Positions 14,124 through 58,134 of a stretch of DNA of 64,000 nucleotides are shown here, piece after piece. The stretch lies in assembly GCA_965219685.1 (NCBI GenBank), contig CBDCOH010000002.1, positions 768,001 to 832,000 of the forward strand. The letters run 5' to 3'. Position 1 is the stretch's first letter. Every line of letters starts with the position of its first letter. The notes beneath the pieces were generated by a model that saw only the letters and a program-made list of their open reading frames with translations, made no database searches and was not told the DNA's origin. The position numbers and the translations under genes are program-made. The stretch is from Candidatus Spongiisociaceae bacterium. Its GTDB lineage: Bacteria > Actinomycetota > Acidimicrobiia > Spongiisociales > Spongiisociaceae.

Positions 14124-15127
14124 GGGTTGAATGGTGGAGCCGGCGGCCCCTTGCGGACGCATGCGGCCCACACCGTTTCGTAGTGGTCCACGTCGTAGGA
14201 GTCGATGTGCGGCAGCACCATGGCCTCCCAAGCACACCGAAGCGGGTCCGCACGGTTGCCGAACATCATGAGGCCCGCAGGAATCCGATCCAGAACTGTG
14301 CGTAGGCTGATCGGCGTCTCGACCCGGGCGCCGGGGTCGGTGGAGAGGAACGACGTGTTGACCTCAGTCGCCAGGCGGCTGATATGTTCGACGTAGGGTC
14401 CTCTCATCGAGGGGTAGCGCCGCAGCAGCATGGCCTCGATCTCCTCTCGGTCGGGGAAGTCCTTCTCCCAGATGACCCAGCGGTCGGCGAACGCCTTGTT
14501 GAGCGTCTGGGTACCGGCGTAGTCGCGCAGGTCGGTCGGGTTCATCGTCCCGAACAGCCGGACGTCGTCCCTCAGGTGCACCGACTCGCCGGTGGGAAGG
14601 TCGAGGGCCGAGTAACGGTCCAGCAGACCGTGCAAGGCGAACAGGGTCTCGGCGCCCGCCGCGTTCAGTTCGGACAGGTTGAGCAGCGCCGGTCCCCTGA
14701 GGGCTCTGGTGATGTCCCCGTCCTCCCAGCGGCTCTCAGTACCCCCCATGCCGTCTCCGTGCAGTTTCACCGAGCCGATGAGGGTGATGTCCCTCACCTC
14801 CCCGGTGAGTGGCACCCGGTAGTAGGGAAGGCGGAGCAGGGCTGCGAACTGTTCGATGTCATGGTCCTTTCCGGTACCCATGTGTCCCCTGACGGCAAGG
14901 TGGAGCGGGACGGTTCCCTCGGGTTTCTCCCTGCGGATGGTCTCCACCTGGGCGAAGCGGTAGAGCATGCCGACATCGACGTAGTGGGGGTCGGGCTCGG
15001 GTATCTTGGCCACGCGCTGGTGGTAGTCCCTGATGCCCTCGCTGGGTACCACCACCGTGTCCAGGGTGATCGGGTCGCCCCCTCCGGTGGGATCCGTGAA
15101 GGTGACAGTCTCTATTGGTTCAGGCAC
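14120..15127 (-). CDS. MoxR/CbbQ/CobS-like AAA+ ATPase
   Basis: GHMGTGKD (Walker A-like), LLNLSELN (Walker B-like), GTMNP...YAGTQTLNKAFADRW, ISLR. Confidence 0.8.
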   Translation of the reverse strand: MPEPIETVTFTDPTGGGDPITLDTVVVPSEGIRDYHQRVAKIPEPDPHYVDVGMLYRFAQVETIRREKPEGTVPLHLAVRGHMGTGKDHDIEQFAALLRLPYYRVPLTGEVRDITLIGSVKLHGDGMGGTESRWEDGDITRALRGPALLNLSELNAAGAETLFALHGLLDRYSALDLPTGESVHLRDDVRLFGTMNPTDLRDYAGTQTLNKAFADRWVIWEKDFPDREEIEAMLLRRYPSMRGPYVEHISRLATEVNTSFLSTDPGARVETPISLRTVLDRIPAGLMMFGNRADPLRCAWEAMVLPHIDSYDVDHYETVWAACVRKGPPAPPFNP

Positions 15128-17237
15128 TTCTTCGCTCCTGTGGGGTCATGGCAGGGCTCCGGTGATCGGCCTGCCGTCCTGCCCTGATCCACCATGTGTC
15201 CTCGCCGTACATGGCCAATCCCCGCCGCAGCGCCATGCTGACGCCTAACACCATCGAGTTGGCCAACTCGTCCGGTCTCGAGATCACCTGGTGGTGCCGG
15301 TAGGCGGAGACGACCGTGTCGTCGCCCACGCCGATTCCCAGGACGGTGGTGCCCCGTCCGTCTATCTCCTCCACCGATCGGGCCAGCGCCTTGACCGATC
15401 CCCGTGTCATCCCGTCGGCGAGTACCACCAACACCCTGACCTGGGCGCCGTGATTGGCAAGGCGCTCTGCGGCGTAGGTGATGTTGAACTCGTCGACGTT
15501 GGCGGCCTTCTCGAACAGCGAGACGGGCGGTGCCTCCCGAGGCGCCCGGCGGGCCTCCAAGCCGGCTTCCCCGGTCCGCGCCGCGGTCCAGAAGAGACCG
15601 GCGAGGACGTCGTCGGATCTCCGCCACGGCTCGGTGAAACCCGACAGGACGTAGTGGTTCACGGTGGACGTGAGGCGGTCGGCGGCCGCTCCATGGGTTC
15701 GGCGGAGTTGGCTGATAGCCGCGGTGCGGCGCCTGGAGTAGGTCCATTCGGTGTCGTCGACCTTGGCCGCGAAGGCCCGGTTGAAGATGGCCACCTCGAA
15801 ATCCACCTGCAGTTCATTGCACATGGCGGCGAGCGTCCACGCTCCCAGCATGGCGGCGGCCAGGCCCCAGGGTCGGCGGTCACGGGGAGCGGCCAGGCGG
15901 CGCGGTTGCAGCATGGAAGCCGATCCGTCCACGAGGACGCTCACCGCGTAGGAGCGCCGAGTGGAGATCGAGCGCCGTTCGAACATCCTCTGGTAGAGGC
16001 CCCCTCCGAGCAGCAATGCGGCATGGGGGGACAGGTCGCCCGCATCGTATCCGGAACGCAGCCCTCGTCGCTGGTTGGCCACGAACAGTGGGTGTAGTTC
16101 GCCGGCTATGTTGCGCTGGTGCACGTTCCACTCGCGCGCTGCGTCCATCAGGGCGCTCCGGCCCTGGCGGGCGAAACGCCGGAATGGTTCGGGCACGCGG
16201 CCCACGGTGAGCTTGCCGCTCTGGCCGGTGGGTAGATAGATCACGGGTGCCTGGCTGACCCTGAGGAGTTGGTCGGTTCCCTCCTCGGACGCCTGGTCCA
16301 ACTCGGCCGGGCGGCCGGTCGGGTCCATCTGATGCCGGTCGGGGCTGCGGGTGTCCCGGTAGTGCTCCGCATCCTGGACGATCGGCGAGTAGAGCCGAAC
16401 CCGGTCGAGTCCTTCGGTGATCGCATCCTTCTCTGCTTCCCTTAGGTCGCGCGGGCTCGGCTGCTCCTCTTCCGAGGCGCCGGAGACCAGTCCGTGCATC
16501 CTGGCTACGGCCAGCAAGCGCATCGCCAGCCCGGCTACTTCCCAGGGGTCGTCGGCGTCCCCTGCCTCCTCCAGGATTCCTAGGGCATCGCGCCAGGCCG
16601 TACCGGAGCGAGCGTCCAGCCCCCGTTCTAGGGCCGCGGGCTCCGCATAGTCGCCCACCGTCAGGAAGCACGCGATGGCGAACCGGGCGAGCGGACCGCT
16701 CCGGCGCAAGGCGTGGGCCATGGAGGTCCGGTACAGGTCTGCGAGCACCGAACGCGCTCCCGGGTAGGCCGCGAGTCCCCTCCGCTCCTGGCGAGAGTCC
16801 TCGATCGCGAAGAACAGGGCCTCGGCAGGTGGTCCGCCCGCGCCGACGAGCGCCTCCAGAAGGGTGGTCTTCTCATCGCCGGCCGGATCGTCGCTCTCCG
16901 GTTGCCACTCAGCGGGGACGGCACGTGCCTCGTCGAAGTCGGAGGACACCAGATGCACCACCTCGTGGAGTGCGGACGCGAGGGCGGTCTCTTCCGGTGT
17001 CACCGGGGCCCGCCGCCCGTAGGCCGCCTGGAACAGGCCGGGGTCGATAACCACTTCCGACTCGGACGAACGGCTCGAAGCGCCCAGCACCACCCGCAAA
17101 TCCTCCCGGCCGGTCAGGGTCCTCGCAACCCTCGTAACCGCGCCGGCCACCCGCTGGTACCGGCCCACCACCGCCTCGATAGCGCGTTCCTCCGGGGGAA
17201 GGATCTCGGTGAGGAACGACTTTTGCCTTGATGCCAC
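15120..17237 (-). CDS. CobT-like vWA-domain protein with N-terminal HExxH
   Basis: ALHEVVHL, AIEDSRQE, RSGYDAGDL, MIDAS VLVDGSASM...VLADG, VLGIGVG. Confidence 0.78.
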   Translation of the reverse strand: MASRQKSFLTEILPPEERAIEAVVGRYQRVAGAVTRVARTLTGREDLRVVLGASSRSSESEVVIDPGLFQAAYGRRAPVTPEETALASALHEVVHLVSSDFDEARAVPAEWQPESDDPAGDEKTTLLEALVGAGGPPAEALFFAIEDSRQERRGLAAYPGARSVLADLYRTSMAHALRRSGPLARFAIACFLTVGDYAEPAALERGLDARSGTAWRDALGILEEAGDADDPWEVAGLAMRLLAVARMHGLVSGASEEEQPSPRDLREAEKDAITEGLDRVRLYSPIVQDAEHYRDTRSPDRHQMDPTGRPAELDQASEEGTDQLLRVSQAPVIYLPTGQSGKLTVGRVPEPFRRFARQGRSALMDAAREWNVHQRNIAGELHPLFVANQRRGLRSGYDAGDLSPHAALLLGGGLYQRMFERRSISTRRSYAVSVLVDGSASMLQPRRLAAPRDRRPWGLAAAMLGAWTLAAMCNELQVDFEVAIFNRAFAAKVDDTEWTYSRRRTAAISQLRRTHGAAADRLTSTVNHYVLSGFTEPWRRSDDVLAGLFWTAARTGEAGLEARRAPREAPPVSLFEKAANVDEFNITYAAERLANHGAQVRVLVVLADGMTRGSVKALARSVEEIDGRGTTVLGIGVGDDTVVSAYRHHQVISRPDELANSMVLGVSMALRRGLAMYGEDTWWIRAGRQADHRSPAMTPQERRSA

Positions 17238-17295
17238 AAAGCTCTATTTTTGCATACGGCGACAGCCGGCGTTCACCCGGCGTGGACGGCCGGTC

Positions 17296-18120
17296 TCAGG
17301 CGACCACGATCGCCAGCAATGCCGCCAGTCCCAACCCGTAGACCACCAGGGCTCGCAGCAGCGGGGTTCTGGGCGTGGGCGGGATCCTCTGCCACAGCGC
17401 CGCCACGACCATTCCCATCACCAAGCCACCGACGTGCGCTTCCCAGGCGATGCCGGTTGCGAAGAGCGGCAGTGCGAGGTTGATGGCCAGCAGAAGGACG
17501 AGTTGGCGGAACTGGGCCGCCCCGTGAACCGTGCCTCGCAGAGGGAAGGTTCCAACGAGAACCGCCCCGAAGAGGCCGAATATCGCGCCCGAGGCGCCTA
17601 CCGCCCCACCGGCCGACAGGTACTGGAAGGCGACCCCCCCGGCGATCGCCGACGAAAGGTACAGACCCACGAAGGAGATGGCGCCCAGTTGGCGTTCGAG
17701 CCGGGGGCCGAACAGGTACAGGGCGTACATATTGAACAGGATGTGGAGCAGCGAACTGCGCGAGTGGAGGAACGCCGCCGTGATGACCCTCCACCACTCG
17801 CCGCGGCCGACCAGATCGGTGAGGTGGGCGTAGTCCAGCGTGAACTGTGGGTTCTGGCGCTGCAGCAGGTAGAACACCGCCGACACCACGATGATGGTCA
17901 GGACTGCGGGGGTGAATCCGGTGGACAGACCCCGGGCGGTGACCACCCGGGTGGCGGACCGGCCCGCTATGCACTGCGGGCACCTCTGCCCGACAGGGGA
18001 GTCATGCGAGCAGAACCCACAGATCGGCGTCTCGCATCGCGAGCACCGCAGCGCTGTGGCCCGTTCGGGGTGGCGGTAGCAGTGGACCGTATCCGGTGTC
18101 TGCGAGTCTCCGCTGTCCAT
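17296..18120 (-). CDS. Rhomboid intramembrane serine protease with N-terminal zinc finger
   Basis: CYRHP...CSRCETPICGFC, WWRVITAAFLH, HILFNMYAL, GASGAIFG, AHVGG. Confidence 0.92.
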   Translation of the reverse strand: MDSGDSQTPDTVHCYRHPERATALRCSRCETPICGFCSHDSPVGQRCPQCIAGRSATRVVTARGLSTGFTPAVLTIIVVSAVFYLLQRQNPQFTLDYAHLTDLVGRGEWWRVITAAFLHSRSSLLHILFNMYALYLFGPRLERQLGAISFVGLYLSSAIAGGVAFQYLSAGGAVGASGAIFGLFGAVLVGTFPLRGTVHGAAQFRQLVLLLAINLALPLFATGIAWEAHVGGLVMGMVVAALWQRIPPTPRTPLLRALVVYGLGLAALLAIVVA

Positions 18121-18210
18121 CGGGTCGATTGTAAGAGAAAGGCCGGTCAAGCGGAACCCATCCTCCGCGGCCGGATGGAGCGTGTATCTCATCTTGTACC
18201 ATCCGTCGTC

Positions 18211-19461
18211 GTGCAGGTAGAGATTTCCAGGACCTCCAACGGGATGACCGTGGTCACCGAGCCGGTTCCGGGGGTTCGGTCCGTGGCGATCGGGTGCTGG
18301 GTGGATACGGGTAGCAGGGACGAGCGGCCCAACGAGGCAGGCGCTGCCCACTTCCTGGAACACCTCCTGTTCAAGGGTTCGGACCGCCTGTCGGCGCGGG
18401 ACATCTCGGAGACTTTCGATGCCATCGGCGCGCAGAGCAACGCCTTCACGTCCAAGGAGTACACCTGTTTCTGGGCGCGGATGCTCGACTCCGAACTCGA
18501 CACCGGGCTAGACCTGCTGGCCGAGATGCTCCAGCGCCCGGCCTTCCGGACCGACGAGATCGATTCGGAACGCCGGGTCGTCATCGAGGAGATCAACATG
18601 AACGAGGACGACCCCTCGGACGTGGCGATGGAAGCCTTCATGAGGACCATCTTCGACGGTCACCCGTTGGGTCTGCCGGTGCTGGGTACACGGGACTCCA
18701 TCGGCGCCATGAGCCGTGACGACCTCCACGGTTACTGGCGCCGCCGTTACGGCTCGGGCACGGTGGCGGTGACGGTGGCCGGCAACACCGAGCATCGGCG
18801 GGTAGTCGATCTCGTGGAGGAACTGTTCGATTCTTGGGACGCTCATGAAGGTGACCACGACCTGGCTCCTCCGGGGATCGAGGCAAGGGTCGACGTGGTG
18901 CGGCGGGACACGGAGCAACTCCACCTGGTCTACGGCGGTGAGTCGGTGGACCGGACCGACGAGAGCCGCCTGGCGGACGGGGTGATGCATCACATCCTCG
19001 GGGGCGGGATGTCGTCGCGACTGTTCCAGAAGATCCGGGAGGAACGCGGTCTGGCCTACGCGGTGCACAGTTTCGCGATGCGGTTTGCCGAGACCGGCGC
19101 CTGGGGCGTCTACGTCGGGACTACCCCGGCAACCGCCCATACGGTGATGGAGATCCTGACCGAAGAACTGCAGCGACTCATATCCGATGGTGTGACCGAG
19201 GAGGAACTGGAGCGAGCCAAGGGTCACATGCGTGGCGCGCTCGCCCTGGCGATGGAGGACACCAACACACGCATGATCCGCCTGGGTCGTAACCACATCT
19301 TCGGCCTTCCCCATCTCACGCTCGACGAGCGGCTGGCCCGCATCGAAGGCATCACCCGCTCGGCGCTGGCCGAGAGCGCGGCCCGGACCCTTCAGGGACC
19401 TCGGGTCATGGGGGCGGTGGGTCCGTTCGAGAGCCGGGAGTTCGAGGAATACCTGTCATGA
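18211..19461 (+). CDS. M16 (pitrilysin-family) zinc peptidase
   Basis: AHFLEHLLFKG (HxxEH), NAFTSKEYT, GGGMSSRLFQKIREERGLAY; usual position before dapB. Start estimated. Confidence 0.92.
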   Translation: MQVEISRTSNGMTVVTEPVPGVRSVAIGCWVDTGSRDERPNEAGAAHFLEHLLFKGSDRLSARDISETFDAIGAQSNAFTSKEYTCFWARMLDSELDTGLDLLAEMLQRPAFRTDEIDSERRVVIEEINMNEDDPSDVAMEAFMRTIFDGHPLGLPVLGTRDSIGAMSRDDLHGYWRRRYGSGTVAVTVAGNTEHRRVVDLVEELFDSWDAHEGDHDLAPPGIEARVDVVRRDTEQLHLVYGGESVDRTDESRLADGVMHHILGGGMSSRLFQKIREERGLAYAVHSFAMRFAETGAWGVYVGTTPATAHTVMEILTEELQRLISDGVTEEELERAKGHMRGALALAMEDTNTRMIRLGRNHIFGLPHLTLDERLARIEGITRSALAESAARTLQGPRVMGAVGPFESREFEEYLS

Positions 19462-30732: not shown

Positions 30733-32106
30733 GTGAGAACCCGCTCCGCTCCGACTGTCCATATCACGACGCTCGGGTGTTCGAAGAACCAGGTCGACTC
30801 CGAGAAGGTGGCGGCCATGCTGGACGAGGCAGGTTACCGGGAGGCGCGATCGCCCGGTACGGCTGACGTGGTGATGGTGAACACCTGCGCCTTCATAGAG
30901 GCCGCCCGCCAGGAGTCCGTCGAGACGATTCTCGACCTGCGGGAATCCAAGGGGGAGGATGCCGGATTGGTGGTGATGGGCTGCATGGCACAACGCTACG
31001 GCGCCGAACTCGAGGAGGCCCTCGACGATGTCGATGCGGTGGTCGGTCTCGACCGTTACGGCGAGCTCGTCGGGATGCTCGACTCGATTACCCGTTGGAC
31101 CCCGGTGCGTCTCGTGCCGCGCCGACCGGCGATGGACCTCCTCGACATGGTGAGCCGACCCGCTCCTACCTTCCCCTATGCCTACGTAAAGGTCGCCGAG
31201 GGTTGCGACAAGACGTGCGCGTTCTGCGCCATCCCGCTCATCCGAGGCCCCCAGCGGTCAAGGCGGCCGACCGCTATCCGGGAGGAGATGGCCCGCCTCT
31301 GCGGCGCGGGAGTATCCGAGGTGATCCTCGTGGCGCAGGATCTGGCGGCCTACGGCCGGGACATCGGGGCTCCGTCGGATGAGAACATCGTCGATCTCCT
31401 CCGGTTCGTATCCGACGTGGAAGGTCTGGTGAGGGTCCGTCTCCTCTACCTCTACCCGACGGAGATCCGCCCGGCCCTGATCGAGGAGATCGCCTCCAAC
31501 CCGAAGCTGGCTCCCTACTTCGACCTGAGCCTCCAGCACGCGTCCCGGCGGCTCCTCCGCTCGATGCGACGCCCTGGCAGCACCAGCAGCCACCTGCGCC
31601 TGATCGACAGGATACAGGCTGCCGAGCCCGAGGCGGCCCTGCGGTCCTCCTTCATAGTGGGATACCCGGGCGAGACTGACGATGACGTCGAGGAGTTGGC
31701 CCGTTTCCTGGAGGAGGCGGACCTCGACTGGGCCGGCTTCTTCCCGTACTCAGCGGAGGAGGGCACGATGGCCGTGGAGCTTGCGGACCGGATCGCTGCC
31801 GCTGAGGTGGCGGCCCGGGTACGGGAACTGTCCCGGATCCAGGATGGGATCACCGCCCGGCGGAACGCCGAACAGGTCGGAACGATCCATACAGTGCTGG
31901 TCGACCAGGTCGAGGACGGTGTTCCGGTCGGAAGGTCGTATCGCGAGGCTCCCGATATCGACGGCATGATCTGCCTGGACACCGGCTTGCCGGGCGATTG
32001 GTGGGAAGTCGAGGTGACGGGCAGTTACGAGACTGATCTGGTGGCGCAGGTGCGCCGACCTGCCGAAGCGGGCGTGCCGGTGGGGGCGGTGGGGAGGCCG
32101 GCATGA
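30733..32106 (+). CDS. rimO: Ribosomal protein S12 methylthiotransferase
   Basis: LGCSKNQVDSE, NTCAFIEAARQES, radical SAM CDKTCAFC, TRAM domain EAPDIDG. Confidence 0.95.
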   Translation: MRTRSAPTVHITTLGCSKNQVDSEKVAAMLDEAGYREARSPGTADVVMVNTCAFIEAARQESVETILDLRESKGEDAGLVVMGCMAQRYGAELEEALDDVDAVVGLDRYGELVGMLDSITRWTPVRLVPRRPAMDLLDMVSRPAPTFPYAYVKVAEGCDKTCAFCAIPLIRGPQRSRRPTAIREEMARLCGAGVSEVILVAQDLAAYGRDIGAPSDENIVDLLRFVSDVEGLVRVRLLYLYPTEIRPALIEEIASNPKLAPYFDLSLQHASRRLLRSMRRPGSTSSHLRLIDRIQAAEPEAALRSSFIVGYPGETDDDVEELARFLEEADLDWAGFFPYSAEEGTMAVELADRIAAAEVAARVRELSRIQDGITARRNAEQVGTIHTVLVDQVEDGVPVGRSYREAPDIDGMICLDTGLPGDWWEVEVTGSYETDLVAQVRRPAEAGVPVGAVGRPA

Positions 32107-39264: not shown

Positions 39265-42200
39265 TTGAGTTGCGGGTCGGTGTATCGGCAAGGCGTCACG
39301 TCCCGGGTGTTGGCCGCCGTGCTGTCCGCGCTGGTGGTGGGATCAGGTCTGGCTTCCGTGCCGGGTGCTGCCGCACAGTCCGCCAGCTTTGATGATGTCG
39401 CGCCCGACAACGTCCACACGCCCCATATCGAGGGGTTGGACCGGTTGGGAGTTTTCGAGGGTACGGAGTGCGGCGAGAGCCTGTTCTGCCCGCAGAAGCC
39501 GTTACCGCGCTGGGTGATGGCTGTGTGGATGGTGCGGTTGCTGGCCACCGGCGAGCCGGCTAAGGAGTCAGGCGGTTCGCGGTTCGCGGACGTGGACGCC
39601 GACGAGTGGTGGGTGCCCTATGTGGAGCGGTTCGATGATCTGGGGATCACCGTGGGCTGTGACGCGGGGCCGCCGCGGCGGTACTGTCCGGATGAATTCG
39701 TGAGCCGGGGGCAGATGGCGACCTTCCTGGCGAGAGCGTTCGATCTGCAGTCCGGGGCCGAGGCGGGGTTCGCTGACGTTTCGGGCGGTGTCCATGCCCC
39801 TCAGATCAACGCGTTGGCGGCTTCGGGCATCACCGTGGGTTGTGACGTGGGGCCGCCGCGGCGGTACTGTCCGGATGAATTCGTGAGCCGGGGGCAGATG
39901 GCCTCCTTCCTCAAGCGGGCTCGAACCGCCTTCATGGGGCCGTGTCCCGATGCAGAGTCTCAGGAAGCCACCGGCGGCGGGGATGGCGGCTCGGGAGGAG
40001 GGTCCGGAACAAGCACCGGTTCCGGTGGCTCGGGCCCCGCTGGTCCGGGCGGCCCGCCGCAGGGTCCTCCGCCTTCCCTGCCTGCTCCGGTCCAACCTCC
40101 CCCGGACGCGCCGCAGTCGCTGGAAGTCGATCCCGGTGAGGCAAGCTTGAGGGTTAGCTGGAGTCCGCCCGATCACAGCGGGCCGGGCGTCGTCGGGTAC
40201 CGACTGCGGTGGAAGGGTCCCGGCCAGGGGTACAGCGACACCGACAGGTCGGACGCCACCACCGCTTTGAGCTACGAGATCACCGATCTGGCCAATGGCG
40301 CAAAGTACGACGTTCAGGTCGCGGCCGGCATCCGGGGCATAGGTTTCGGGGGTTGGTCCGAGGCTTCCGGCACACCCCGTACGGTGCCCCATGCGCCAAG
40401 GTCGCCAAGAGTGTCCAACGGTGACGAGAAGCTCACGGTGAGCTGGACGGCGCCGGCGGCGAACGGCGGGGCGCCGGTGACCGGCTACCGCGTGGAGTGG
40501 TCCTCCGACGGCGTGACACTCGGCGAAGAGAGCGCGACCGGCCTGAACCATGAAATCGAGGACCTGACCAACGGCACCGACTATGTGGTGCGAGTGGCCG
40601 CAGTGAATGCAGCGGGTGCGGGACCCTGGTCGGTTGAGGCCGAGGGCTCGCCGGTCGGAACCCCGGACGCCCCCCAGGTTGTCAGTACCGAGCCGGGAGA
40701 CAGGTCGGTGACGATCGAGTGGTCGCCACCGACCGACGATGGCAGTTCGGCGATCACCGGGTACAAGGTGCAGTGGCGTTCCGGCACGCAGGAGTACAGC
40801 TCGAGCCGCCAGAGGGGGGTGGCCGCGGACGTCTCGGAGTACGAGGTCACCGGTCTGGTCAATGGCACGGAGTACGAGGTTCGGGTGGTCGCGGTGAACG
40901 CGGTGGGCGACGGCGAGCCCTCGATGGGAGCATCCGCCACCCCCGCAACCACGCCCGGACCACCGCGCACGGTGCTAGTGGCGCGGGGTGACGCGTCGGG
41001 GACGGTGGCGTGGTCGTCACCGTCCGCAGCCGGAGGCAAACCGGTCACCGGTTACGTCGTCCAGTGGTCCGACGACGAGTTCGACCAATCTGTCAACGAG
41101 GCTCAGGTAGCGGCGGACGTCTCGGAGTACGAGATCTCCGGTCTGGTCAATGGCACGGAGTACGAGGTTCGGGTGGTCGCGGTGAACGCGGTGGGCGACG
41201 GCGAGCCGTCGCAGGGCGCGTCCCTGACCCCGGCGACTGTTCCGGGCGCGCCCGCTGATCTGGACGTCGCCCGTGGCGTCCGATCCGTGACCGTTTCGTG
41301 GGGAGCGCCCAGCGATGGCGGATCGGCTATCACGGCTTACCGGGTGCAGTGGCGCGCCGACGACGGCGACTTCGAGGACTCGGATACACAGGCTTCGGTC
41401 GCCGGCGGTTCTTTGAGCCGCCGGATCACCGGTTTGGTCAACGGCACGGAGTACTTTGTTCGGGTGGTCGCGGTGAACGCTGTGGGTGAGGGGCCCTGGT
41501 CCTCGGTCGCTTCGTCCACCCCGGCGGTGGTGCCCGGACCGCCGCAGAACGTCGCAGTCACACCGGCCAACGGGTCGGTCACAGCAACCTGGCAGGTCCC
41601 TGCGAGCACCGGCGGCTCGCCGATCACCAGTTACAAGGTGCAGTGGCGGGCCGAGAGCGAAGGGTACGACTCCGGGCGTCAGGCCGCCGTGACCGACCTG
41701 GACGATCTGAGTTACGAGATCACCGGCCTGAGCAACGGGACGAAGTATTTCATTCGGGTGGTCGCGGTCAACGCGGTCGGCGATGGGGCCGCGCCCAAGG
41801 AGCTTGCGGCCACGCCTGTCACCAGTCCGGAAGCTCCCGGGAAGGTTGCCGCCGAGCGGGGGGACCGCGCCGTGACGGCAACCTGGGAGGCTGCCGACGA
41901 CGGTGGCTCGGACATAACGCGGTACAGGGTGCAGTGGCGCGCGGGCGATGACAAGTTCAAGGATTCGGATTCTCAGGCCACGGTCGGTGGGAGCGTTTCG
42001 AGCCGGCGGATCACGGGTCTCACCAATGGCACCGAGTACTGGGTGCGGGTGCAGGCGACCAACAGTGTGGGTGACGGGCCGTGGTCGGCGTCGGCGTCCG
42101 CGGTGGCGGCGACCGTCCCGGGCGCGCCCGGCAGCGTTGTCGCCGGGCGGGGCGACCGTTCGATAACCGTGACGTGGCAGGCGCCGTCCGCCACTGGCGG

Positions 42201-43836
42201 TCTGGCGATCACGGCGTACAAGGTGCAGTGGCGCACCGAGGACGAGACGTACGGAGAGGAGGGTCGCGAGGCCGATGTGACCGATGTGACCGATCTGAGT
42301 TACGAGATCACCGGTTTGGTCAACGGTACGAAGTACTTCGTGCAGGTGTTTGCGGTCAACGACGCCGGCGACAGCGCAGCGTCCGCGCAACGGTCGGCCA
42401 CGCCGGCGACCCTTCCGGGTGCGCCGGATGATGTGACGCTCCAGACGCGGGACCGGTCGCTCGACGTGTCCTGGGAGGCTGCCGACGACGGCGGCTCGGA
42501 CATAACGCGGTACAGGGTGCAGTGGCGCGCGGGCGATGACAAGTTCAAGGATTCGGACTCTCAGGCCACGGTCGGTGGGAGCGTTTCGAGCCGGCGGATC
42601 ACGGGTCTCACCAATGGCACCGAGTACTGGGTGCGGGTGCAGGCGACCAACAGTGTGGGTGACGGGCCGTGGTCGGCGTCGGCGTCCGCGGTGGCGGCGA
42701 CCGTCCCGGGCACCCCTCTGAGCATCTCCGCGGTTCCGGACGACGGGTCGGTCACGGTGAGCTGGCAGGCGCCGGACGACGGCGGCTCCGACATCACCGG
42801 GTACCTCGTGGAGTGGCGCGGCGCCGACGAGAAGTTCAGCGAGACCGAACGCCGGCTCACCACCACCGATGTCTCCCAGCAGATCACGGGTCTCACCAAT
42901 GGCGACGAGTACTCGGCGCGGGTCCGGGCGGTGAACGCCGCCGGCACCGGCCCTGCCGCGACTGCTTCGGCGACTCCCCGCACCGTGCCTGCCGCTCCCG
43001 GCGACATCAGCATCACGATCTCGACCGCCCTGGTCATGCTGGTGTCGTGGGATCCACCGGACGACGACGGCGGGTCGTCGATCACCGGCTACGGAGTGGA
43101 GTGGAAGGGTCCCGACGAGGAGTACAGCGCGACAGAGCGCCAAGCGACCGTGACGAGCCCGCGCCATCAGATCTCGGGCCTGACCAAGGGTGAGGAGTAC
43201 ACCCTGAGGATCGCCGCGAGGAACGTCGCCGGATCAGGTCCGGCAGCCGAGGCTTCTGCGGTAGTGGCTGATCCGCCGGGCGCGCCGCGCTCGCAGACCG
43301 TGACGGCACACCACGGCGCCCTGGAAGTGTCATGGCAAGCGCCGTCCGATGCCGGTGGATCCGCGATAACCGAGTACCGCGTGCTGTGGAAGGGTCCGGG
43401 CCAGAACTTCGACGACTCGAAGTGCTCGTTCCGGCGGATCAGGATCTCGGCCAGCGAGACTTTGACCGCCGCGATAGGAGAGCTCCGGAACGGTACGACG
43501 TACAGCATTCGGGTCGTGGCCGTGAACGACAGCGGCCCCGGGGCGCCCCTGGACTTCTCGGGTACGCCCGCGGCGCCCTCGGGACTGAGGCTTGGTCCGG
43601 TTGCTTCGCTCCGGGACCGAAGCCTGGCAGTGGGCCGGAACCAACCGCGCCACATTGGGTCGCCGGCCACCGGCAACCGGGTGGAGTGGACAGGAGTGGA
43701 GCGGTACTACCGCGCCTCGGATCGTTTGGCCACGGTCGGCCCAACTCTGAGACGAACAATCAACGGCACTCGACAAGGGAGGCGACATGAGTCAAGAAGC
43801 ACCCGGCCCCGCGGGCGGAGGCCTGTCCGACCGTGA
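39265..43836 (+). CDS. Large surface protein: signal peptide, 3 SLH-like repeats, Gly/Pro linker, 12 fibronectin type III domains and a degenerate 13th
   Basis: GC...YCP...SRGQMA.FL repeats; twelve P.AP...V.W..P...GG..ITGY.VQW...GL.NGT.Y.VRV.A.N..G units. Start codon uncertain. Confidence 0.9.
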   Translation: MSCGSVYRQGVTSRVLAAVLSALVVGSGLASVPGAAAQSASFDDVAPDNVHTPHIEGLDRLGVFEGTECGESLFCPQKPLPRWVMAVWMVRLLATGEPAKESGGSRFADVDADEWWVPYVERFDDLGITVGCDAGPPRRYCPDEFVSRGQMATFLARAFDLQSGAEAGFADVSGGVHAPQINALAASGITVGCDVGPPRRYCPDEFVSRGQMASFLKRARTAFMGPCPDAESQEATGGGDGGSGGGSGTSTGSGGSGPAGPGGPPQGPPPSLPAPVQPPPDAPQSLEVDPGEASLRVSWSPPDHSGPGVVGYRLRWKGPGQGYSDTDRSDATTALSYEITDLANGAKYDVQVAAGIRGIGFGGWSEASGTPRTVPHAPRSPRVSNGDEKLTVSWTAPAANGGAPVTGYRVEWSSDGVTLGEESATGLNHEIEDLTNGTDYVVRVAAVNAAGAGPWSVEAEGSPVGTPDAPQVVSTEPGDRSVTIEWSPPTDDGSSAITGYKVQWRSGTQEYSSSRQRGVAADVSEYEVTGLVNGTEYEVRVVAVNAVGDGEPSMGASATPATTPGPPRTVLVARGDASGTVAWSSPSAAGGKPVTGYVVQWSDDEFDQSVNEAQVAADVSEYEISGLVNGTEYEVRVVAVNAVGDGEPSQGASLTPATVPGAPADLDVARGVRSVTVSWGAPSDGGSAITAYRVQWRADDGDFEDSDTQASVAGGSLSRRITGLVNGTEYFVRVVAVNAVGEGPWSSVASSTPAVVPGPPQNVAVTPANGSVTATWQVPASTGGSPITSYKVQWRAESEGYDSGRQAAVTDLDDLSYEITGLSNGTKYFIRVVAVNAVGDGAAPKELAATPVTSPEAPGKVAAERGDRAVTATWEAADDGGSDITRYRVQWRAGDDKFKDSDSQATVGGSVSSRRITGLTNGTEYWVRVQATNSVGDGPWSASASAVAATVPGAPGSVVAGRGDRSITVTWQAPSATGGLAITAYKVQWRTEDETYGEEGREADVTDVTDLSYEITGLVNGTKYFVQVFAVNDAGDSAASAQRSATPATLPGAPDDVTLQTRDRSLDVSWEAADDGGSDITRYRVQWRAGDDKFKDSDSQATVGGSVSSRRITGLTNGTEYWVRVQATNSVGDGPWSASASAVAATVPGTPLSISAVPDDGSVTVSWQAPDDGGSDITGYLVEWRGADEKFSETERRLTTTDVSQQITGLTNGDEYSARVRAVNAAGTGPAATASATPRTVPAAPGDISITISTALVMLVSWDPPDDDGGSSITGYGVEWKGPDEEYSATERQATVTSPRHQISGLTKGEEYTLRIAARNVAGSGPAAEASAVVADPPGAPRSQTVTAHHGALEVSWQAPSDAGGSAITEYRVLWKGPGQNFDDSKCSFRRIRISASETLTAAIGELRNGTTYSIRVVAVNDSGPGAPLDFSGTPAAPSGLRLGPVASLRDRSLAVGRNQPRHIGSPATGNRVEWTGVERYYRASDRLATVGPTLRRTINGTRQGRRHESRSTRPRGRRPVRP

Positions 43837-44131
43837 GGAGCCTTCCGCGTCAGTACGGGAGTCGGGTACGTACGAGGCCGACGCCGACCCGGATCACGTC
43901 TGGGTGAAGCGCGATGCCAACGGTGAGACCATTCGAGCGAGGTTCAGGGGCTATCCCGTCGACTTCGCATTCGAGGCCGGGGATGCGACCGGAATCGAGC
44001 TCGTGGACGGGGAGTGGCACACCATTCCCTCGGTCTTTCACACCGTCCGGCTCGGCAGCCGTATCGAGTGGTGGACGATGAACCGCCGCACGGGCTTCTT
44101 CCGGCTGCTGTCCGAGAGGACTCTCGATTGA
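43787..44131 (+). CDS. Hypothetical protein, first gene of the Cys-peptide/mau-like operon
   Basis: GGGAGG RBS before ATG 43787; 114 aa, aromatic and beta-rich; no recognised family. Confidence 0.65.
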   Translation: MSQEAPGPAGGGLSDREEPSASVRESGTYEADADPDHVWVKRDANGETIRARFRGYPVDFAFEAGDATGIELVDGEWHTIPSVFHTVRLGSRIEWWTMNRRTGFFRLLSERTLD

Positions 44132-44168
44132 GCTGCCATCTGCTCCACCCCGCGCATCTTCCCGGGCC

Positions 44169-44489
44169 GTGCCCGACATGACGGCTGTACGAGACCCGAG
44201 AGACAGGCGATGGTTCCTGCGCTCAGTCGCCGGCGCGGCGCTGGGCCTGGTGACCGTAGGGGCCCAGGCCCTGTTCGGGGCTTCTCCCGCCTTGGCCCGG
44301 TATTCGTGTTGTGTGCTATTGCACGGCAACGACCCGTGGTGCCCCGTGACCTGCGCCGGGTTGGGTCACCACATCAGGTGCTGGACGTGTTGGGAAAACT
44401 CGTGTAAATGCTGTGAGTGCACCAACGGCAACTCTTGTTGGGGATCCGAGACCTTCTGCTCGTACGAATTCGAGTGTTGTCCGGGATGA
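44169..44489 (+). CDS. Tat-exported cysteine-rich peptide (14 Cys, 4 Trp in an ~63-aa mature region)
   Basis: DRRWFL Tat motif, hydrophobic stretch, SPALA cleavage site, then RYSCC...CWTCWENSCKCCECTNGNSCWGSETFCSYEFECCPG. Start may be ATG 44178. Confidence 0.85.
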   Translation: MPDMTAVRDPRDRRWFLRSVAGAALGLVTVGAQALFGASPALARYSCCVLLHGNDPWCPVTCAGLGHHIRCWTCWENSCKCCECTNGNSCWGSETFCSYEFECCPG

Positions 44490-44541
44490 TGGCGTTCAGG
44501 CGCCGGCGCTGCACACCATGTCGCCCGGGAGGTTACTGACG

Positions 44542-45126
44542 ATGCCAATTCTGGCTGATCTGGCCGTGATGGGGTCTGCTTCGATCCTGCTGCTCACCGG
44601 ATCCTCCAAGCTCGTGCGGCCGAGCCCCATCGCCGCGACCCTGGCCATGCTCTGGAATACGGTGACCGGGCAGGATCGCGAGGCTGCGCCACCGATGCTG
44701 GGCCGGCTTCTGGGCGTGGGTGAGATGGGTCTGGCGGCGGCCACGGTCGTCGGGCGTTCTCCCGCCACAGCGGTTGCCCTCGCTCTGTTCGCCATTGGCC
44801 TGGCGGGCGCCGGGGTGATCGGTGTGATGAGCGACGGGAAGCTTCCGTGCGCCTGTTTCGGCGCGTCCGACCGCTCTCTCGGCTATCCGCACATCCTCCA
44901 ACTCCCGCTGTGGTTGGTAACTGCCTGGGCGGTCACGGGAGACCCGGCGCTGTTCGGGACCGGCGCAGGGCTCGAGCAGGGACTCGCCATGCTCGCAGTC
45001 TGCGCCATCGCGTCGACGGCGTTCCACGTGGCGAAAATGTGGCACGCGGTCTACCCGATCGTGCGACAAGGGAGGCGCGGCACGGCTGATCGTGCTGCAT
45101 TCCAGGCAGGCTCGGGAGGGTCGTAG
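44542..45126 (+). CDS. MauE/DoxX-family membrane protein
   Basis: GGAGG RBS; LLLTGSSKL, GVGEMGLA, LPCACFG (MauE C-x-C-F-G). Confidence 0.8.
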   Translation: MPILADLAVMGSASILLLTGSSKLVRPSPIAATLAMLWNTVTGQDREAAPPMLGRLLGVGEMGLAAATVVGRSPATAVALALFAIGLAGAGVIGVMSDGKLPCACFGASDRSLGYPHILQLPLWLVTAWAVTGDPALFGTGAGLEQGLAMLAVCAIASTAFHVAKMWHAVYPIVRQGRRGTADRAAFQAGSGGS

Positions 45127-45719
45127 TGGTGCTCGCCGCCCTACTTATCTCGATCGTGGCGCTGCTGTTGTCCGGCTTGGTCGCGTTGGCGGTAATGGAG
45201 TTGGCGGCTGACCGGTCCCCTGCCCAGAGCGAGCCCGCCGCCGACGTGGTGGAGGGATTCGAACTCCCCCCGGAAGCTGAGGGGACTGCCGCCAGCAGGC
45301 ACGGGCTGCCCCGGTCTATCGACGAGACGGCCACCCACCTGGTGCTTGTCGTCTCTCCGGTTTGCGCCACGTGCCAGAAGCTGGTCGCCTCCTTCGACGG
45401 TGCCATACCCGACGGTCTGACGGTCGTGGTCACCGCCTCCGACCCGCTCCGGATGCGCAGGTGGGCTACGGGCCATGGGCTGTCGACCGGGGATCTGGTC
45501 TTCGACGACGACATGTCCATCGTGAACGGACTAGGCGTTTCCTCAAGCCCTGCTGCAGTCGGGTTCATCCGTGGAAAGGCGGCATTCGCAGTCAATCTGG
45601 GCGGGCGTCCGGCTCTCGACGACCTGCTGGCGCGGCGCGCCACGATCCCGGAGGAGGTTACGAGTCAGGCTGCCTCCGATCCGGACTCGCGCCCGGACAG
45701 CAAGGGCCACGGCCGGTGA
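45126..45719 (+). CDS. MauD-like membrane-anchored thioredoxin-fold protein
   Basis: N-terminal TM helix; VSPVCATCQKL (CxxC); LGVSSSPAAV cis-Pro loop; start overlaps the mauE-like stop. Confidence 0.78.
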   Translation: MVLAALLISIVALLLSGLVALAVMELAADRSPAQSEPAADVVEGFELPPEAEGTAASRHGLPRSIDETATHLVLVVSPVCATCQKLVASFDGAIPDGLTVVVTASDPLRMRRWATGHGLSTGDLVFDDDMSIVNGLGVSSSPAAVGFIRGKAAFAVNLGGRPALDDLLARRATIPEEVTSQAASDPDSRPDSKGHGR

Positions 45720-46414
45720 CAGGGACTTGGGCAACGATGCCGGAGATCCTGTCCGCAGGCACCCTGCTGGTGGGCGGCCTCTTGCAGCGTTACAGCCCTT
45801 GAGGCATTTCCTTCGTGGGCCAGTTCGGCCCCACCTTCGCGGCTGCCAGGGGCGCTCGACGGTTCTCGGACAGCGGGGTCTACGTGCTCGGGGTGCTGGC
45901 GTCCTCGGCGGTGTTCATGTTCGCGCTGGATGCGGTCGGGATCAGCTTCCGGGGGGCCACGGGCGTCCGGGGCGCCCTGGTCGCAGCGCTTACCCTGACA
46001 TGCCTGCTGCTGGTGGTGGACGCGGTCAGGTTGTGGGGCGGACGTGTCACCTCCGTCGGACTCCACCGGCAGACCCCGTACGGTTGGCGCTTGAAGGGTC
46101 CCATCGGTGTTCTCGGCTGGGGTCTCGACACCGGCCTGCCCGTCTCGACGGTCAGGGTCACGTCACTGCCCGTGCTTGGCGTGATCCTCGCCGCCACGGG
46201 CCACGCGGGACCGTTCCACGGGCTGTTCTACGGCTGCGGCCTGGCGCTCGGGGTCTTCGCCGGGATGATGTCGGTACGCTCAGGCGTGCGCGCCGACCGG
46301 GCCGTCGACGAGCTCCTGCGAAGGTACCGGGGGCTGAGACCCGTCCCTCTCGTACTCGGACCGAGCGGCATGACGTCAGCCGTCCTGGCCGGGTCCCTGG
46401 TGTTCTTGCCCTAG
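45716..46414 (+). CDS. MauF-like membrane protein with in-frame UGA at 45800-45802 (candidate selenocysteine)
   Basis: GTG start overlaps the previous stop (GTGA). The frame reads ...GGLLQRYSP-TGA-GISFVGQFGP... and continues to 46414. MauF has WSPCG.S at this position, and HRQTPYGW...GWGLDTG matches the MauF C-terminal motif. Confidence 0.7.
45803..45847 (+). promoter_or_regulatory. Candidate bacterial SECIS hairpin directly 3' of the UGA
   Basis: GTGGGCC-AGTTC-GGCCCCAC upper stem-loop (45815-45834); loop starts 19 nt after the UGA with G second in the loop; possible lower pair GGCA/TGCC. Confidence 0.5.
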
Positions 46415-55305: not shown

Positions 55306-55440
55306 CTGGTATCAAGTACGATGTGGGAATATCTTCACTATAGACTTCGATGGCCTCATGAAACCAGCACCTACGGTCGACCCACGATTTGGTCGCCACC
55401 GTCGAAGATCTTGTCCGGCTTCCCCGGGGAGGTGACCATC

Positions 55441-58134
55441 GTGTTGTTACGTGCCCTGGTTGTGGTGGTGGTTGTTGCGGTGAGTGCAGCAGTCGCGGTG
55501 GTGGCGCCTGCGGTTGCGTTGGCGCAGTCCAGCCGGTTCGGTGATGTGGCTGAAGATGCCTTTTACAAAGACGCGGTCACTCAGTTAGACCGTGTAGGCG
55601 TCTTCACGGGCACCGAATGTGAGGAGGGGTTCTGTCCCGGCGGTGTGATGGACCGCAAGACCATGGCGGTGTGGGTGGTGCGAGTCCTCGGACGTCAGGA
55701 CCCGCCCACGGTCGCAGAGTCGAGGTTCGAAGATGTGGATGCCGATGGTTTCTTCGCGCCGTTCATCGAGAAACTGGCCGATCTCGGAGTGACCACCGGC
55801 TGCGGCGACGGCACTAGATTCTGTCCCGACAGTTCGGTGACCCGCGCCCAGATGGCTGTGTTCCTGTCTCGTACCTATCAACTGGCGGAAGGCCCCGACC
55901 CGGGATTCATGGATGTGAGTCCTGGTAACTGGTTCGCCGATCATGTCGCGAGGCTGGCTGCTTCGGGCATTACCACCGGCTGTGGCGACGGCACCAGATT
56001 CTGTCCCGGTCGAGACACCACCCGGGCGCAGATGGCTGTCTTCTTGTGGCGAGCCGAGACAACTCCCGTGGTGCTGGCCGCGGGCACGTGCGGTGTCGTC
56101 GAAGACGAAGCGCGACTGCTCGTGGACGGGTCCGATGGGGCCGATTGGTCACCTGATTGCAGCCGCATCGTGTACGCGTACGGCGGGTCGCTGTGGGTGA
56201 TGGACAACGATGGCCGCAGCCGGCAGCGCATCGTGAGCGACAACGATGCGTGGCTGCGCACGCCTGCGTGGTCCCCTGACGGTACCCGGATCGCGTATGG
56301 ACGCACGTCGGAAAGCAATGGAAGCTTGTTTTCCCATATTTGGACCGTAGACGCGGACGGCACCGACAGGACGCGGGTTTCCCGCGGTGACGTTTACGAT
56401 TCTTGGCCGTCGTGGTCTCCACTGGGAGACCGCATCACGTTTCAGCGTTACTCAGGGGATGGCCGAGACGAGGGTGGTGATGTTGTCAACCCCGAACAGA
56501 ATATCTTCGTCGCGAACGCCGCAGGAGGCGACGAAATGGTGCTAACCGAAAGAACCGGCCGCTGGGAGAGTACGCCGGCGTGGTCGCCGGATGGTAGCCG
56601 CATTGCGTATTTGTCTGGTGGAGCGGTGTGGCTGATCGACCCGGATGGCGCCGATGCGCCATGGGTAGTAGCAGGTGCGTTGTGGGACGGCGGTTTGTCG
56701 TGGTCTCCCGACGGCACCCGCATAGCTTTCGTCCGGCCTGATGGCGACGGATCGTCCATAGTAATCGCGGATATCAATGGACTTAACGCAGAGACGATCA
56801 CCGGCAGCGACGAGCTTGACACTGCGCCGCGATGGTCACCGGACGGCCAGCGCATCCTTTTCACCAGAAGCCTGGCTGGAGACAGGCAGCAGTTGCACGT
56901 GGTCGGGGCGAGCGGTGTAGGAGTACCAGTACCGGTCGACTGCCGACCCGTGGGACCGGCGTCTCATTGGAACACGGCCGGCTTTCCGCTCCACCCGGAC
57001 TTGGTACGCGCGAACGGCACCGTGCGCATCGCGGTGCTGTTCATGGACTTCCCCGACGCCGAAGCTGCCCACACAACCCAAGCGGAGGCGATGCTGGGCC
57101 TGCCCTGGGCCGAGGCCTACCTCGAAACCGCCAGCTACGGCAAACTCGACATCGAGTTCGTGCCGTTGCATCGCTGGCTGCGCGCCACCAAGGACTCCGC
57201 CCACTACACCAACGCCAGCCTCGGCGGCGCGCAGAGTCTCGAGTTAGACGCGTCGGTTGAAGCCGTGGCTCTGGCTGACGAAGAGTTCGACTTCTCAGCC
57301 GTGAACATGGTCCTGACGGTGTTCCCGAGCTCCCACTTCAGCGGGGGCAACGCTACAGGCCAGGCCACCGCCGATGATGTCACGCTGCAGACGACGAGGG
57401 CCAACACGTTCGGACACGACGAAGAGCAGCCGCCCGAACAATGGGGGTTTGTTGGCGCGCACGAGATCGCGCACATCTTCGGTCTGGCTGATCTGTATTC
57501 CTACAGCCCGAAGGATCCACCCGAACCTCCCGACGGATCGGTGTGGGCGCAGACCGATTGGGGACTCATGCACCTCCACGGATGGTTCCAAACCCGTCCT
57601 GACGATGCGCGGCTAAGTATCACTTTGCGCTCGCCCTACGGCGACAATTCCAGCGCCACCGGAGATAGGATTGATATGCTGGAGATGCTCGCTTGGAGCC
57701 GCTGGCAGACCGGATGGCTCCAAGAGGCTCAGGTCCTATGCATGACCCAACCGGAGGCCACGGTCACGCTGGCACCCATAGCCATGCCGGGTGCGCATCT
57801 GGCCATGGTCGCAGTCCCGCTCAATTCCCATGAAGTCATCGTGATCGAGAGCCGCCGCAAACTCGGATACGACAACGGCTTCGAATACTCCCTACCCGAC
57901 GGATACCATTACACAGCTCCCGGACTCCCCACCGAAGGCGTCTTGGTGTACACCGTCGACTCGCTTATCGAGACCGGCTCCCTGCCCATCAAGCTCGCCG
58001 GCGACAGCGACCGCCAACTGGACCGATTTCCCGTGCTACAGCCCGGCGACTCGATCACCCTGCACGGCTACACCATCACTGTCATAGCCGACAACGGCCG
58101 CACCCACACTGTCACGATCACTCAGCACAGCTAG
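55441..58134 (+). CDS. Secreted SLH-like + TolB/PD40 beta-propeller + M6-like zinc metalloprotease
   Basis: GGAGG RBS, signal peptide, GC.DGTRFCP...TRAQMAVFL repeats, multiple P.WSPDG.RIA repeats, VLFMDFPDA, HEIAHIFGLADLY, ESRRKLGYD, EGVLVYTVD. Confidence 0.85.
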   Translation: MLLRALVVVVVVAVSAAVAVVAPAVALAQSSRFGDVAEDAFYKDAVTQLDRVGVFTGTECEEGFCPGGVMDRKTMAVWVVRVLGRQDPPTVAESRFEDVDADGFFAPFIEKLADLGVTTGCGDGTRFCPDSSVTRAQMAVFLSRTYQLAEGPDPGFMDVSPGNWFADHVARLAASGITTGCGDGTRFCPGRDTTRAQMAVFLWRAETTPVVLAAGTCGVVEDEARLLVDGSDGADWSPDCSRIVYAYGGSLWVMDNDGRSRQRIVSDNDAWLRTPAWSPDGTRIAYGRTSESNGSLFSHIWTVDADGTDRTRVSRGDVYDSWPSWSPLGDRITFQRYSGDGRDEGGDVVNPEQNIFVANAAGGDEMVLTERTGRWESTPAWSPDGSRIAYLSGGAVWLIDPDGADAPWVVAGALWDGGLSWSPDGTRIAFVRPDGDGSSIVIADINGLNAETITGSDELDTAPRWSPDGQRILFTRSLAGDRQQLHVVGASGVGVPVPVDCRPVGPASHWNTAGFPLHPDLVRANGTVRIAVLFMDFPDAEAAHTTQAEAMLGLPWAEAYLETASYGKLDIEFVPLHRWLRATKDSAHYTNASLGGAQSLELDASVEAVALADEEFDFSAVNMVLTVFPSSHFSGGNATGQATADDVTLQTTRANTFGHDEEQPPEQWGFVGAHEIAHIFGLADLYSYSPKDPPEPPDGSVWAQTDWGLMHLHGWFQTRPDDARLSITLRSPYGDNSSATGDRIDMLEMLAWSRWQTGWLQEAQVLCMTQPEATVTLAPIAMPGAHLAMVAVPLNSHEVIVIESRRKLGYDNGFEYSLPDGYHYTAPGLPTEGVLVYTVDSLIETGSLPIKLAGDSDRQLDRFPVLQPGDSITLHGYTITVIADNGRTHTVTITQHS

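Follow-up and report, generated by a model that had tools for sequence, protein, structure and literature searches.

Among the described systems closest to the locus reported here is the mau cluster of Paracoccus denitrificans (mauFBEDACJGMN), which lies on plasmid 1 according to the part of PMC4543880 available to us and served as our reference (L006; the stretch mauR-FBEDA-amicyanin-JG was compared). There MauA, a small Cys-rich protein with a twin-arginine translocation (Tat) signal, is encoded beside the membrane protein MauE and the membrane-anchored CxxC protein MauD; that a single operon can bring together a disulfide generator of the MauE type, a carrier with CxxC and a Tat substrate rich in Cys is known in principle. 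We analysed a locus apparently built on the same principle in a stretch of 64,000 nucleotides, hereafter the window, from Candidatus Spongiisociaceae bacterium (Acidimicrobiia; GCA_965219685.1, contig CBDCOH010000002.1, positions 768,001 to 832,000). Six short genes on the + strand stand directly 3' of the gene for a 1523-aa surface protein with FN3 domains (the giant protein): gene 1, a Tat-signal Cys-rich mini-protein (the peptide), a MauE gene (gene 3), a gene for a membrane-anchored CxxC protein (gene 4), a 21-codon open reading frame (ORF) for a putative micro-protein, and gene 5 (Table 1). On balance, we think it probable that they form a self-contained operon dedicated to one small secreted protein, covering its synthesis, its export and its oxidative folding.

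Beyond the mau cluster, the available part of a 2026 preprint (bioRxiv 10.64898/2026.03.05.709764) describes MauE as a generalist DsbB-like oxidase: MauE from two phyla substitutes for DsbB in Escherichia coli in motility and alkaline phosphatase assays, its CXC motif is needed for activity, it is predicted to bind quinone near a conserved Lys in transmembrane segment (TM) 1 and a conserved Glu in TM2, a thioredoxin-family domain is fused to 8.2% of MauE entries, and MauA is present in only 10.2% of MauE-bearing species. In Streptomyces, three candidate families of peptides that are made by ribosomes and modified after translation (RiPPs) with precursors of at least 8 Cys are encoded in clusters with mauE, one of them also with mauD, and MauE is proposed to modify the peptide (decRiPPter 2020; available part of PMC7794033). 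In view of both sources, the folding-operon idea that an earlier note on this DNA put forward is less new than the note assumed. In DsbA/DsbB and the actinobacterial MdbA/VKOR, likewise, a thioredoxin-fold carrier, soluble or anchored, is paired with a membrane protein that re-oxidises it and is linked to quinone, and substrate-dedicated Dsb paralogue pairs exist, e.g. DsbL/DsbI; unlike in DsbA/DsbB and MdbA/VKOR, the membrane partner here comes from a different family and the pair is operon-linked to its presumed substrate.

The product of gene 3 matches the Pfam MauE model PF07291 at 33.3 bits (cut-off 27, E = 6.6e-8) over profile positions 3-126 of 128, the control value for Paracoccus MauE being 101.6 bits, and its residues K23, E61 and C103-A-C105-F106-G are invariant in an alignment with Paracoccus MauE and two relatives, the CAC-FG loop coming after a predicted TM (78-96). 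Since it lies above the Pfam cut-off and has the CXC-F motif, the Lys and the Glu, the MauE label given earlier stands; judged by sequence, gene 3 is a true MauE, and it would act as a quinone-linked, DsbB-like disulfide generator. As in the mau cluster, MauE is followed by the CxxC protein and the MauE motif, Lys and Glu are kept. With the generalist proteins, as far as the available text of the preprint describes them, gene 3 shares the CXC-F-G loop after TM3, the Lys and Glu, a partner that is probably of the thioredoxin family and a setting mostly without MauA; unlike them, it is not a stand-alone housekeeping gene, its operon also encoding a single presumed substrate very rich in Cys and a CxxC partner of its own. 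A tblastn search of the MauE protein and of gene 5 against plasmids gave nothing usable.

Gene 4 keeps an N-terminal TM helix, an acidic linker, a Ser-Pro-x-Cys-Ala-x-Cys motif and a Ser-Ser-Pro loop resembling a cis-Pro loop in the four copies known from the window and two related loci described below, with C80, C83 and P142 conserved in 4/4. The CACFG motif of gene 3 and the CATC motif of gene 4 were both found as the earlier note had reported them, and its MauD-like label for gene 4 survives for the architecture only, that is, a membrane anchor plus CxxC. Gene 4 is not a MauD equivalog, with no match to TIGR02661 at E <= 1 (cut-off 188.6 bits), whereas true MauD scored 383.7 bits and also matched several thioredoxin-type Pfam models. 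Weak likenesses were found to MauD, where hhalign set the two CxxC motifs against each other (E = 0.0043, probability 8%), to the cis-Pro half of the SOQ1 thioredoxin-like domain in the PDB (E = 0.72) and to PF00085 (E = 0.089, in one of the four copies); PDB matches of gene 4 did not rise above chance level. Taken with the anchor and the CxxC motif, these are consistent with gene 4 acting as a DsbA/MauD-like disulfide carrier.

The presumed substrate begins with a sequence that includes DRRWFLR (Tat motif RRWFLR), followed by a hydrophobic stretch at residues 20-38 and by ALA at 41-43 before R44. It thereby has an S/T-R-R-x-F-L-K-type motif, a hydrophobic stretch and an Ala-x-Ala site, and is a predicted Tat substrate. 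Beyond ALA43 the chain runs for 63 residues, among them 14 Cys, 4 Trp and 3 His, as had been counted before. A word-based search found six relatives, and a profile search of 1.84 billion representative proteins gave 42 peptide clusters at E <= 1e-3, 21 of these at E <= 1e-10. The proteins are 74-166 aa long, with a median mature length of 67 residues (range 62-86), and signal and Cys-rich part are both covered in nearly all. This peptide family is real, more than chance would give, and was previously unnamed; literature searches found no publication on it. In a 49-sequence alignment C48, C58, C62, W72, C81, E83 and C90 are invariant, and R13, R14, A41, A43, C47, L50, C74, C84, C97 and S98 are each at least 90% conserved. 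The RR motif is present in 42/49 members, and the TIGR01409 Tat signal model matches 8/49. We set aside the idea that the peptide is a lipoprotein, as no lipobox precedes the first Cys.

A comparison of the peptide with MauA by hidden Markov models (HMMs) had been set beforehand as a test, and the two turned out to be unrelated in sequence. None of the 49 members matches the MauA models PF02975 (E <= 5) or TIGR02659 (E <= 1), which true MauA matches at 180.1 and 399 bits; hhalign with Paracoccus MauA aligned the Tat signal only (probability 3%); and a single Trp, W72, is invariant, where a TTQ small subunit has two conserved cofactor Trp. A PDB profile search with the peptide returned no amine-dehydrogenase chain at E <= 10, only chance-level matches, and the only Pfam or NCBIfam matches of the 49 members were to Tat-signal-type models and, in weak, scattered single-member cases, to others, with no quinoprotein small-subunit model among them. 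At 63 mature residues against the 113 positions of the Pfam domain, the peptide is also about half the size of MauA, as the earlier note had said.

The cysteines of the mature part vary in a regular way. Sixteen of the 49 members have 14 Cys, 10 have 9, eight have 11, seven have 13, five have 12, and one each has 15, 10 or 7; the family core consists of nine Cys plus Trp72 and Glu83, which are invariant in 49/49. Positions 71 and 82 are both Cys in 22 members, singly in 1 and in neither position in 26, and positions 79 and 104 are both Cys in 34, singly in 4 and in neither in 11; Cys103, present in 23 members, varies independently. Because the variable positions covary as pairs, the pattern fits disulfides. 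Going by covariation rather than by a structure, disulfides 71-82 and 79-104 may have been added stepwise onto the nine-Cys core, and in the clade of the window's peptide Cys103 may cap one core Cys, the same that would be unpaired in roughly every second member. On a maximum-likelihood tree the Cys classes fall into clusters, requiring 7 changes where shuffling gives a mean of 27.9, a comparison that rests on few columns and on a tree with many unresolved forks.

The gene set recurs as a unit. One scan of genome contigs with the peptide yielded two true loci, both from Acidimicrobiales, L001 (Candidatus Aldehydirespirator sp.) and L002; two others (L003 and L004), in which only the signal peptide matched, were dropped. 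Together with the window these make four cassettes in three genomes, and the peptide and its accessory genes thus co-occur elsewhere, as the earlier note had proposed to check. L002 has the order of the window, namely giant FN3 gene, gene 1, peptide, MauE, gene 4, small ORF and gene 5. L001 carries two tandem cassettes (4570-18679): the first runs from a giant gene through gene 1, peptide, MauE, gene 4 and small ORF to a gene-5 stub, cut at about 11760, the point at which a copied segment with the upstream region and the 5' end of the giant gene sets in, and the second consists of a second giant gene, gene 1', gene 4', peptide', small ORF and an intact gene 5. A six-frame HMM scan found one copy each of peptide, gene 1, gene 4, MauE and gene 5 in the window and in L002, and in L001 two copies each of peptide, gene 1 and gene 4 with one of MauE and one of gene 5. 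The doubling of the giant gene, gene 1, peptide and gene 4 around a single MauE in L001 fits one generator for two carrier-substrate pairs. When equal size of the longest contig is taken as a proxy for the same contig, 15 values are common to 51 gene-5 and 47 gene-1 rows, and 3 of 6 peptide rows match gene-1 rows, which points indirectly to co-occurrence.

The position of the cassette behind a giant FN3 protein, seen earlier in this one stretch, proved to be real synteny, as a homologue of the giant gene precedes each of the four cassettes. Outside the stretch from giant gene to gene 5, the window's sequence is not common to the other loci, and the wall anchor of the giant protein differs, with SLH in the window (39265-40200) and in L001 and three CWB2 repeats in L002 (4140-5501). 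Since the outer flanks and the anchor differ while the FN3 array and the cassette are kept, the travelling unit is the FN3 array plus the cassette. At 43560-43836 the window's giant protein ends within a degenerate FN3, without the one to two final FN3 of L001 and L002, and its ORF overlaps gene 1 by 50 bases; there may have been a deletion at the 3' end of the giant gene.

Three further components are conserved orphans. Gene 1 is kept in 4/4 cassettes and has 47 homologous clusters, none with a Pfam domain; it matched nothing in Pfam, NCBIfam or the PDB and bears no likeness to MauJ or to the Tat chaperone NapD, both of which were considered. We propose that it may be a cytoplasmic partner or chaperone of the peptide. 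The 21-codon ORF, absent from the earlier note's gene list, is open in the same register in 4/4 loci and has a predicted hydrophobic stretch; between the window and L002 it differs by 8 synonymous and 4 conservative codon changes (alignment read by eye). The open register and the mostly synonymous differences argue that it is translated as a hydrophobic micro-protein. For gene 5 there are 51 homologous clusters, with identities of 51% or more throughout, lengths near 199 aa and no Pfam domain, and its invariant motifs include RQTP, W-R, WG-DTG-P and HGL-YG-G. A crude count of hydropathy and charge would place its most conserved loop (residues 72-107) on the cytoplasmic side. The few source names attached to relatives of genes 1 and 5 read 'hypothetical protein', one of them in a Candidatus Poriferisodalis record.

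The earlier label of gene 5 as MauF-like was not supported: hhalign of a 22-sequence profile against Paracoccus MauF gave a probability of 0.6% and BLASTP an E of 3.5, and the lengths are 199 and 277 aa (true MauF, run as a control, matches no Pfam or NCBIfam model). A CcdA/DsbD-like thiol-redox role was likewise rejected, since conserved Cys are absent across 22 aligned gene-5 relatives, and gene 5 matched neither MauE nor anything in Pfam or the PDB. The claim that the last three genes are translationally coupled did not hold as made, because only genes 3 and 4 overlap and the 21-codon ORF sits between genes 4 and 5. At 45795-45822 the stop of this ORF, a GAGG ribosome site and the GTG of gene 5 are nearly invariant as DNA and could pair as a hairpin that hides the ribosome site of gene 5, with all pairs invariant and covariation none; the arrangement suggests termination-reinitiation coupling, without support from covariation.

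Set against the mau cluster as a whole, the locus is unlike it in what it lacks as well as in its peptide and gene 4. It has no MauB, MauG, amicyanin, MauJ or MauF counterpart, nor is there a MauB or MauG counterpart in the cassette flanks of L001 and L002, and three orphan genes and a giant FN3 gene stand in their place. In line with the earlier remark that mauB, mauG and amicyanin genes are missing from the window, models of the methylamine dehydrogenase (MADH) heavy chain, MauG and cupredoxins matched none of the 53 large ORFs of the 64-kb window (at least about 115 aa) at E <= 1e-5. The Streptomyces families resemble the present one in that an actinobacterial mauE stands beside the gene for a small precursor with 8 or more Cys and the genomes contain no further mau genes. 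Going by the available part of PMC7794033, they are unlike it in that their precursors have 57-66 residues in total, no twin-arginine and another Cys pattern (by inspection, unaligned), and that part of the source makes no mention of gene 1, the micro-protein, gene 5 or a giant FN3 protein. What is new here is a peptide family that combines a core of nine Cys with an invariant Trp and an invariant Glu, the orphan gene 1, micro-protein and gene 5, and the fixed link to an FN3 giant.

The core of the earlier reading, that these genes are a folding system outside the cytoplasm, dedicated to a small Tat product rich in disulfides and not to methylamine dehydrogenase, holds on the co-occurrence of the genes and the lack of likeness to MauA. 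Gene content, motifs, conservation and co-occurrence were observed directly, and from them we infer an export route, a redox direction, a disulfide pairing and roles for the genes beyond MauE. The precursor would be sent through Tat by its RRWFLR signal and cut after Ala-x-Ala, so that some 63 residues with their 14 Cys are set free; on the outer side of the membrane, gene 4, as the anchored CxxC protein, would put disulfides into this chain, and MauE would re-oxidise gene 4 through its CAC motif and pass the electrons to the quinone pool, a division of labour like that of DsbA/DsbB and MauD/MauE. Tat passes unstructured hydrophilic chains of up to about 100-120 residues (available part of PMC6708511), so a reduced 63-residue chain could go out unfolded and be oxidised outside. 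Gene 1, the micro-protein and gene 5 would most likely hold or escort the reduced precursor before or during export, or process it. Gene 1 might be a chaperone or a signal-less partner carried out with the peptide as a hitchhiker, a mechanism known for Tat. The finished mini-protein would most likely work at the cell surface together with the giant FN3 protein encoded upstream.

Several points weigh against a dedicated folding operon of this kind. Mean pairwise identity among 10 close members is 71.5% in the signal region and 48.9% in the mature part (38.4% and 37.3% across all 49), and plain targeting does not explain a signal more conserved than the mature part; because of this difference, gene 1, and perhaps gene 5, are suspected to bind the precursor before export. 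The Cys count is odd in 27/49 members, which together with the nine-Cys core implies at least one Cys outside an intramolecular disulfide in many of them. Gene 4 matches no MauD or thioredoxin-type Pfam or NCBIfam model at E <= 1, and its thioredoxin fold, though probable, is based on the three weak signals given above. Whether the pair acts as oxidase, isomerase or reductase cannot be read from sequence, and an earlier proposal, cited in the available part of bioRxiv 10.64898/2026.03.05.709764, had MauE as a reductase. The three conserved genes around the pair have no assigned role, and MauE and gene 4 could serve the giant protein, with 9 Cys in its ORF as listed, instead of the peptide.

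One version of this last idea is that MauE and gene 4 mainly serve the giant FN3/SLH protein, the peptide being a separate small subunit or a by-stander. The giant gene lies upstream of 4/4 cassettes, 7 of its product's Cys fall in the anchor region, six of them as three closely spaced pairs (one of the 9, at position 3, precedes the likely signal), and in L001 gene 4 was duplicated along with the giant gene. We nevertheless consider this quite unlikely, because 14 of the peptide's 63 residues are Cys but only 9 of the giant protein's 1523, the cassette is still present in L002, where the giant protein has a CWB2 anchor, and the peptide and gene 1 were duplicated with gene 4 too. An alternative interpretation is that the product is a secreted antimicrobial or signalling peptide, RiPP-like or defensin-like, with gene 5 and the micro-protein providing self-protection or processing and MauE and gene 4 only folding it. 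Its small size, secretion and dense cysteines, the precedent of the three Streptomyces candidate families (available part of PMC7794033), the accessory membrane proteins from orphan families and the island-like variation of the outer flanks from genome to genome all speak for it, but we regard it as rather unlikely: net charge across the family centres on 0 (median; range -13 to +9), the window's own peptide being acidic, and a cationic character is thus not a consistent trait of the family; neither a protease nor an ABC exporter nor a regulator is encoded in the cassette; a Tat signal with Ala-x-Ala takes the place of a leader; the Streptomyces precursors differ in the respects already given; and such tight linkage to a giant surface protein is atypical for bacteriocins.

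Two interpretations remain. A mini cofactor protein, in which Trp72 and a core Cys form a cross-link or quinone resembling cysteine tryptophylquinone (CTQ), or another Cys cross-link, and which serves as a small extracellular redox subunit like MauA, would share with MauA the accessory logic of Tat signal, many Cys, MauE and CxxC protein; the invariance of Trp72 and Glu83, the odd core and frequently odd Cys counts would suit it, and the three conserved genes of unassigned function could supply the chemistry. We judge it very improbable, since no member is MauA-like or matches a quinoprotein small-subunit model, W57 is kept in just 25/49 members (position 91 is Trp in 21/49), which makes a Trp-Trp quinone unlikely, Cys103 makes the count even in the window's clade, and no gene for a MauG-type peroxidase, flavoprotein or radical-SAM protein lies in or near the cassettes of the window, L001 or L002; the window's single radical-SAM ORF (30733-32106, UPF0004 and TRAM) is about 12 kb upstream, outside the cassette. 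An extended form of this idea strikes us as a long shot: gene 1, the micro-protein and gene 5 would make a cross-link or quinone-type cofactor from Trp72, Glu83 and the unpaired core Cys without MauG, using the unusually conserved Tat signal as their recognition leader, and the product would dock on the FN3 giant as an extracellular redox or catalytic tip. We hold it to be very improbable, too, that the peptide is a metal-binding or iron-sulfur mini-protein, loaded in the cytoplasm and exported folded by Tat, with the CxxC protein and MauE guarding or resetting its thiols. Tat is the usual route of cofactor-loaded proteins, the peptides have 9-14 Cys plus His, the cytoplasmic gene 1 could be an insertion chaperone and the signal is unusually conserved, but Cys are gained and lost in pairs, which fits disulfides rather than cluster ligands, and MauE, reported in the available part of the preprint as an oxidase, would destroy thiolate ligation; the peptide shows no known cluster motif, no metal-handling gene lies nearby, and Pfam ferredoxin and HiPIP models match 0/49 members. 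The dedicated folding operon remains our preferred reading.

The five co-oriented ORFs listed by the earlier note all lie where it placed them, and Table 1 adds the 21-codon ORF and the giant gene. A strong AAGGGAGG precedes the ATG of gene 1. The peptide, by comparison with homologues, probably starts at ATG 44178 rather than at GTG 44169, and MauE probably starts at ATG 44542, nine bases after GGGAGG, which gives 194 aa. The GTG of gene 4 overlaps the TAG of gene 3 by one base (TAGTG, 45124-45128), the only overlap among genes 3-5 and, as a coupling of generator and presumed carrier, a point in favour of the folding-operon reading; the GTG of gene 5 (45815) lies 12 bases past the stop of the 21-codon ORF and 10 bases past GAGG.

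Table 1 Features of the giant-protein gene and the adjoining cassette (coordinates in the window).
Feature	Coordinates	Strand	Remarks
Giant surface protein, 1523 aa	39265..43836	+	Sec-type signal, SLH wall-anchor region, 12 FN3 stretches (Pfam fn3, SLH)
Gene 1, 114 aa	43787..44131	+	No signal peptide, TM or Cys; orphan family
Tat-signal Cys-rich mini-protein precursor, 106-aa ORF	44169..44489	+	Likely ATG 44178; predicted mature part 63 aa, 14 Cys
Gene 3, MauE-family membrane protein, 194 aa	44542..45126	+	PF07291; CAC-FG motif
Gene 4, 197 aa	45126..45719	+	N-terminal TM anchor, acidic linker, CATC, Ser-Ser-Pro loop
21-codon ORF, putative hydrophobic micro-protein	45737..45802	+	Register open in 4/4 loci; ends Q-R-Y/F-S-P
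Gene 5, 199-aa membrane protein	45815..46414	+	About 5 predicted TM segments; orphan family, no conserved Cys

The rest of the window, which includes recA, ftsK, dapAB and RNase J among other genes, looks like normal chromosomal DNA; neither Rfam nor tRNA scans returned anything for it, and a promoter and terminator scan was uninformative. Nowhere else in the window is the AT skew as negative as in the bin 44001-46000 (-0.197), whose GC of 0.67 is ordinary. At 8377-12413, GCV_T/2Fe-2S and SoxD-domain ORFs suggest a sarcosine-oxidase-type methylated-amine enzyme, 30 kb from the cassette and with no sign of a link to it. A second SLH-anchored surface protein (937 aa, 55321-58134) with PD40/DPPIV-type beta-propeller repeats is encoded 9 kb downstream; it did not match the MADH heavy-chain model at E <= 1e-5.

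If the folding-operon reading is right, the locus would be an operon-encoded example of the newly described MauE disulfide pathway in which just one substrate is served, an extreme one whose 63 residues could hold as many as seven disulfides, and would offer a convenient system for studying MauE with a carrier partner; a compact operon for folding dense disulfides might also find use in making knotted peptides. The comparison raises the questions of why a Cys-rich chain goes through Tat and why its signal outconserves the mature part. It also defines three protein families for which neither Pfam nor NCBIfam has a model, those of gene 1, gene 5 and the Cys-rich Tat peptide, plus a conserved micro-protein, and ties these genes to giant surface proteins with FN3 domains in Acidimicrobiia, on which few experiments have been done.

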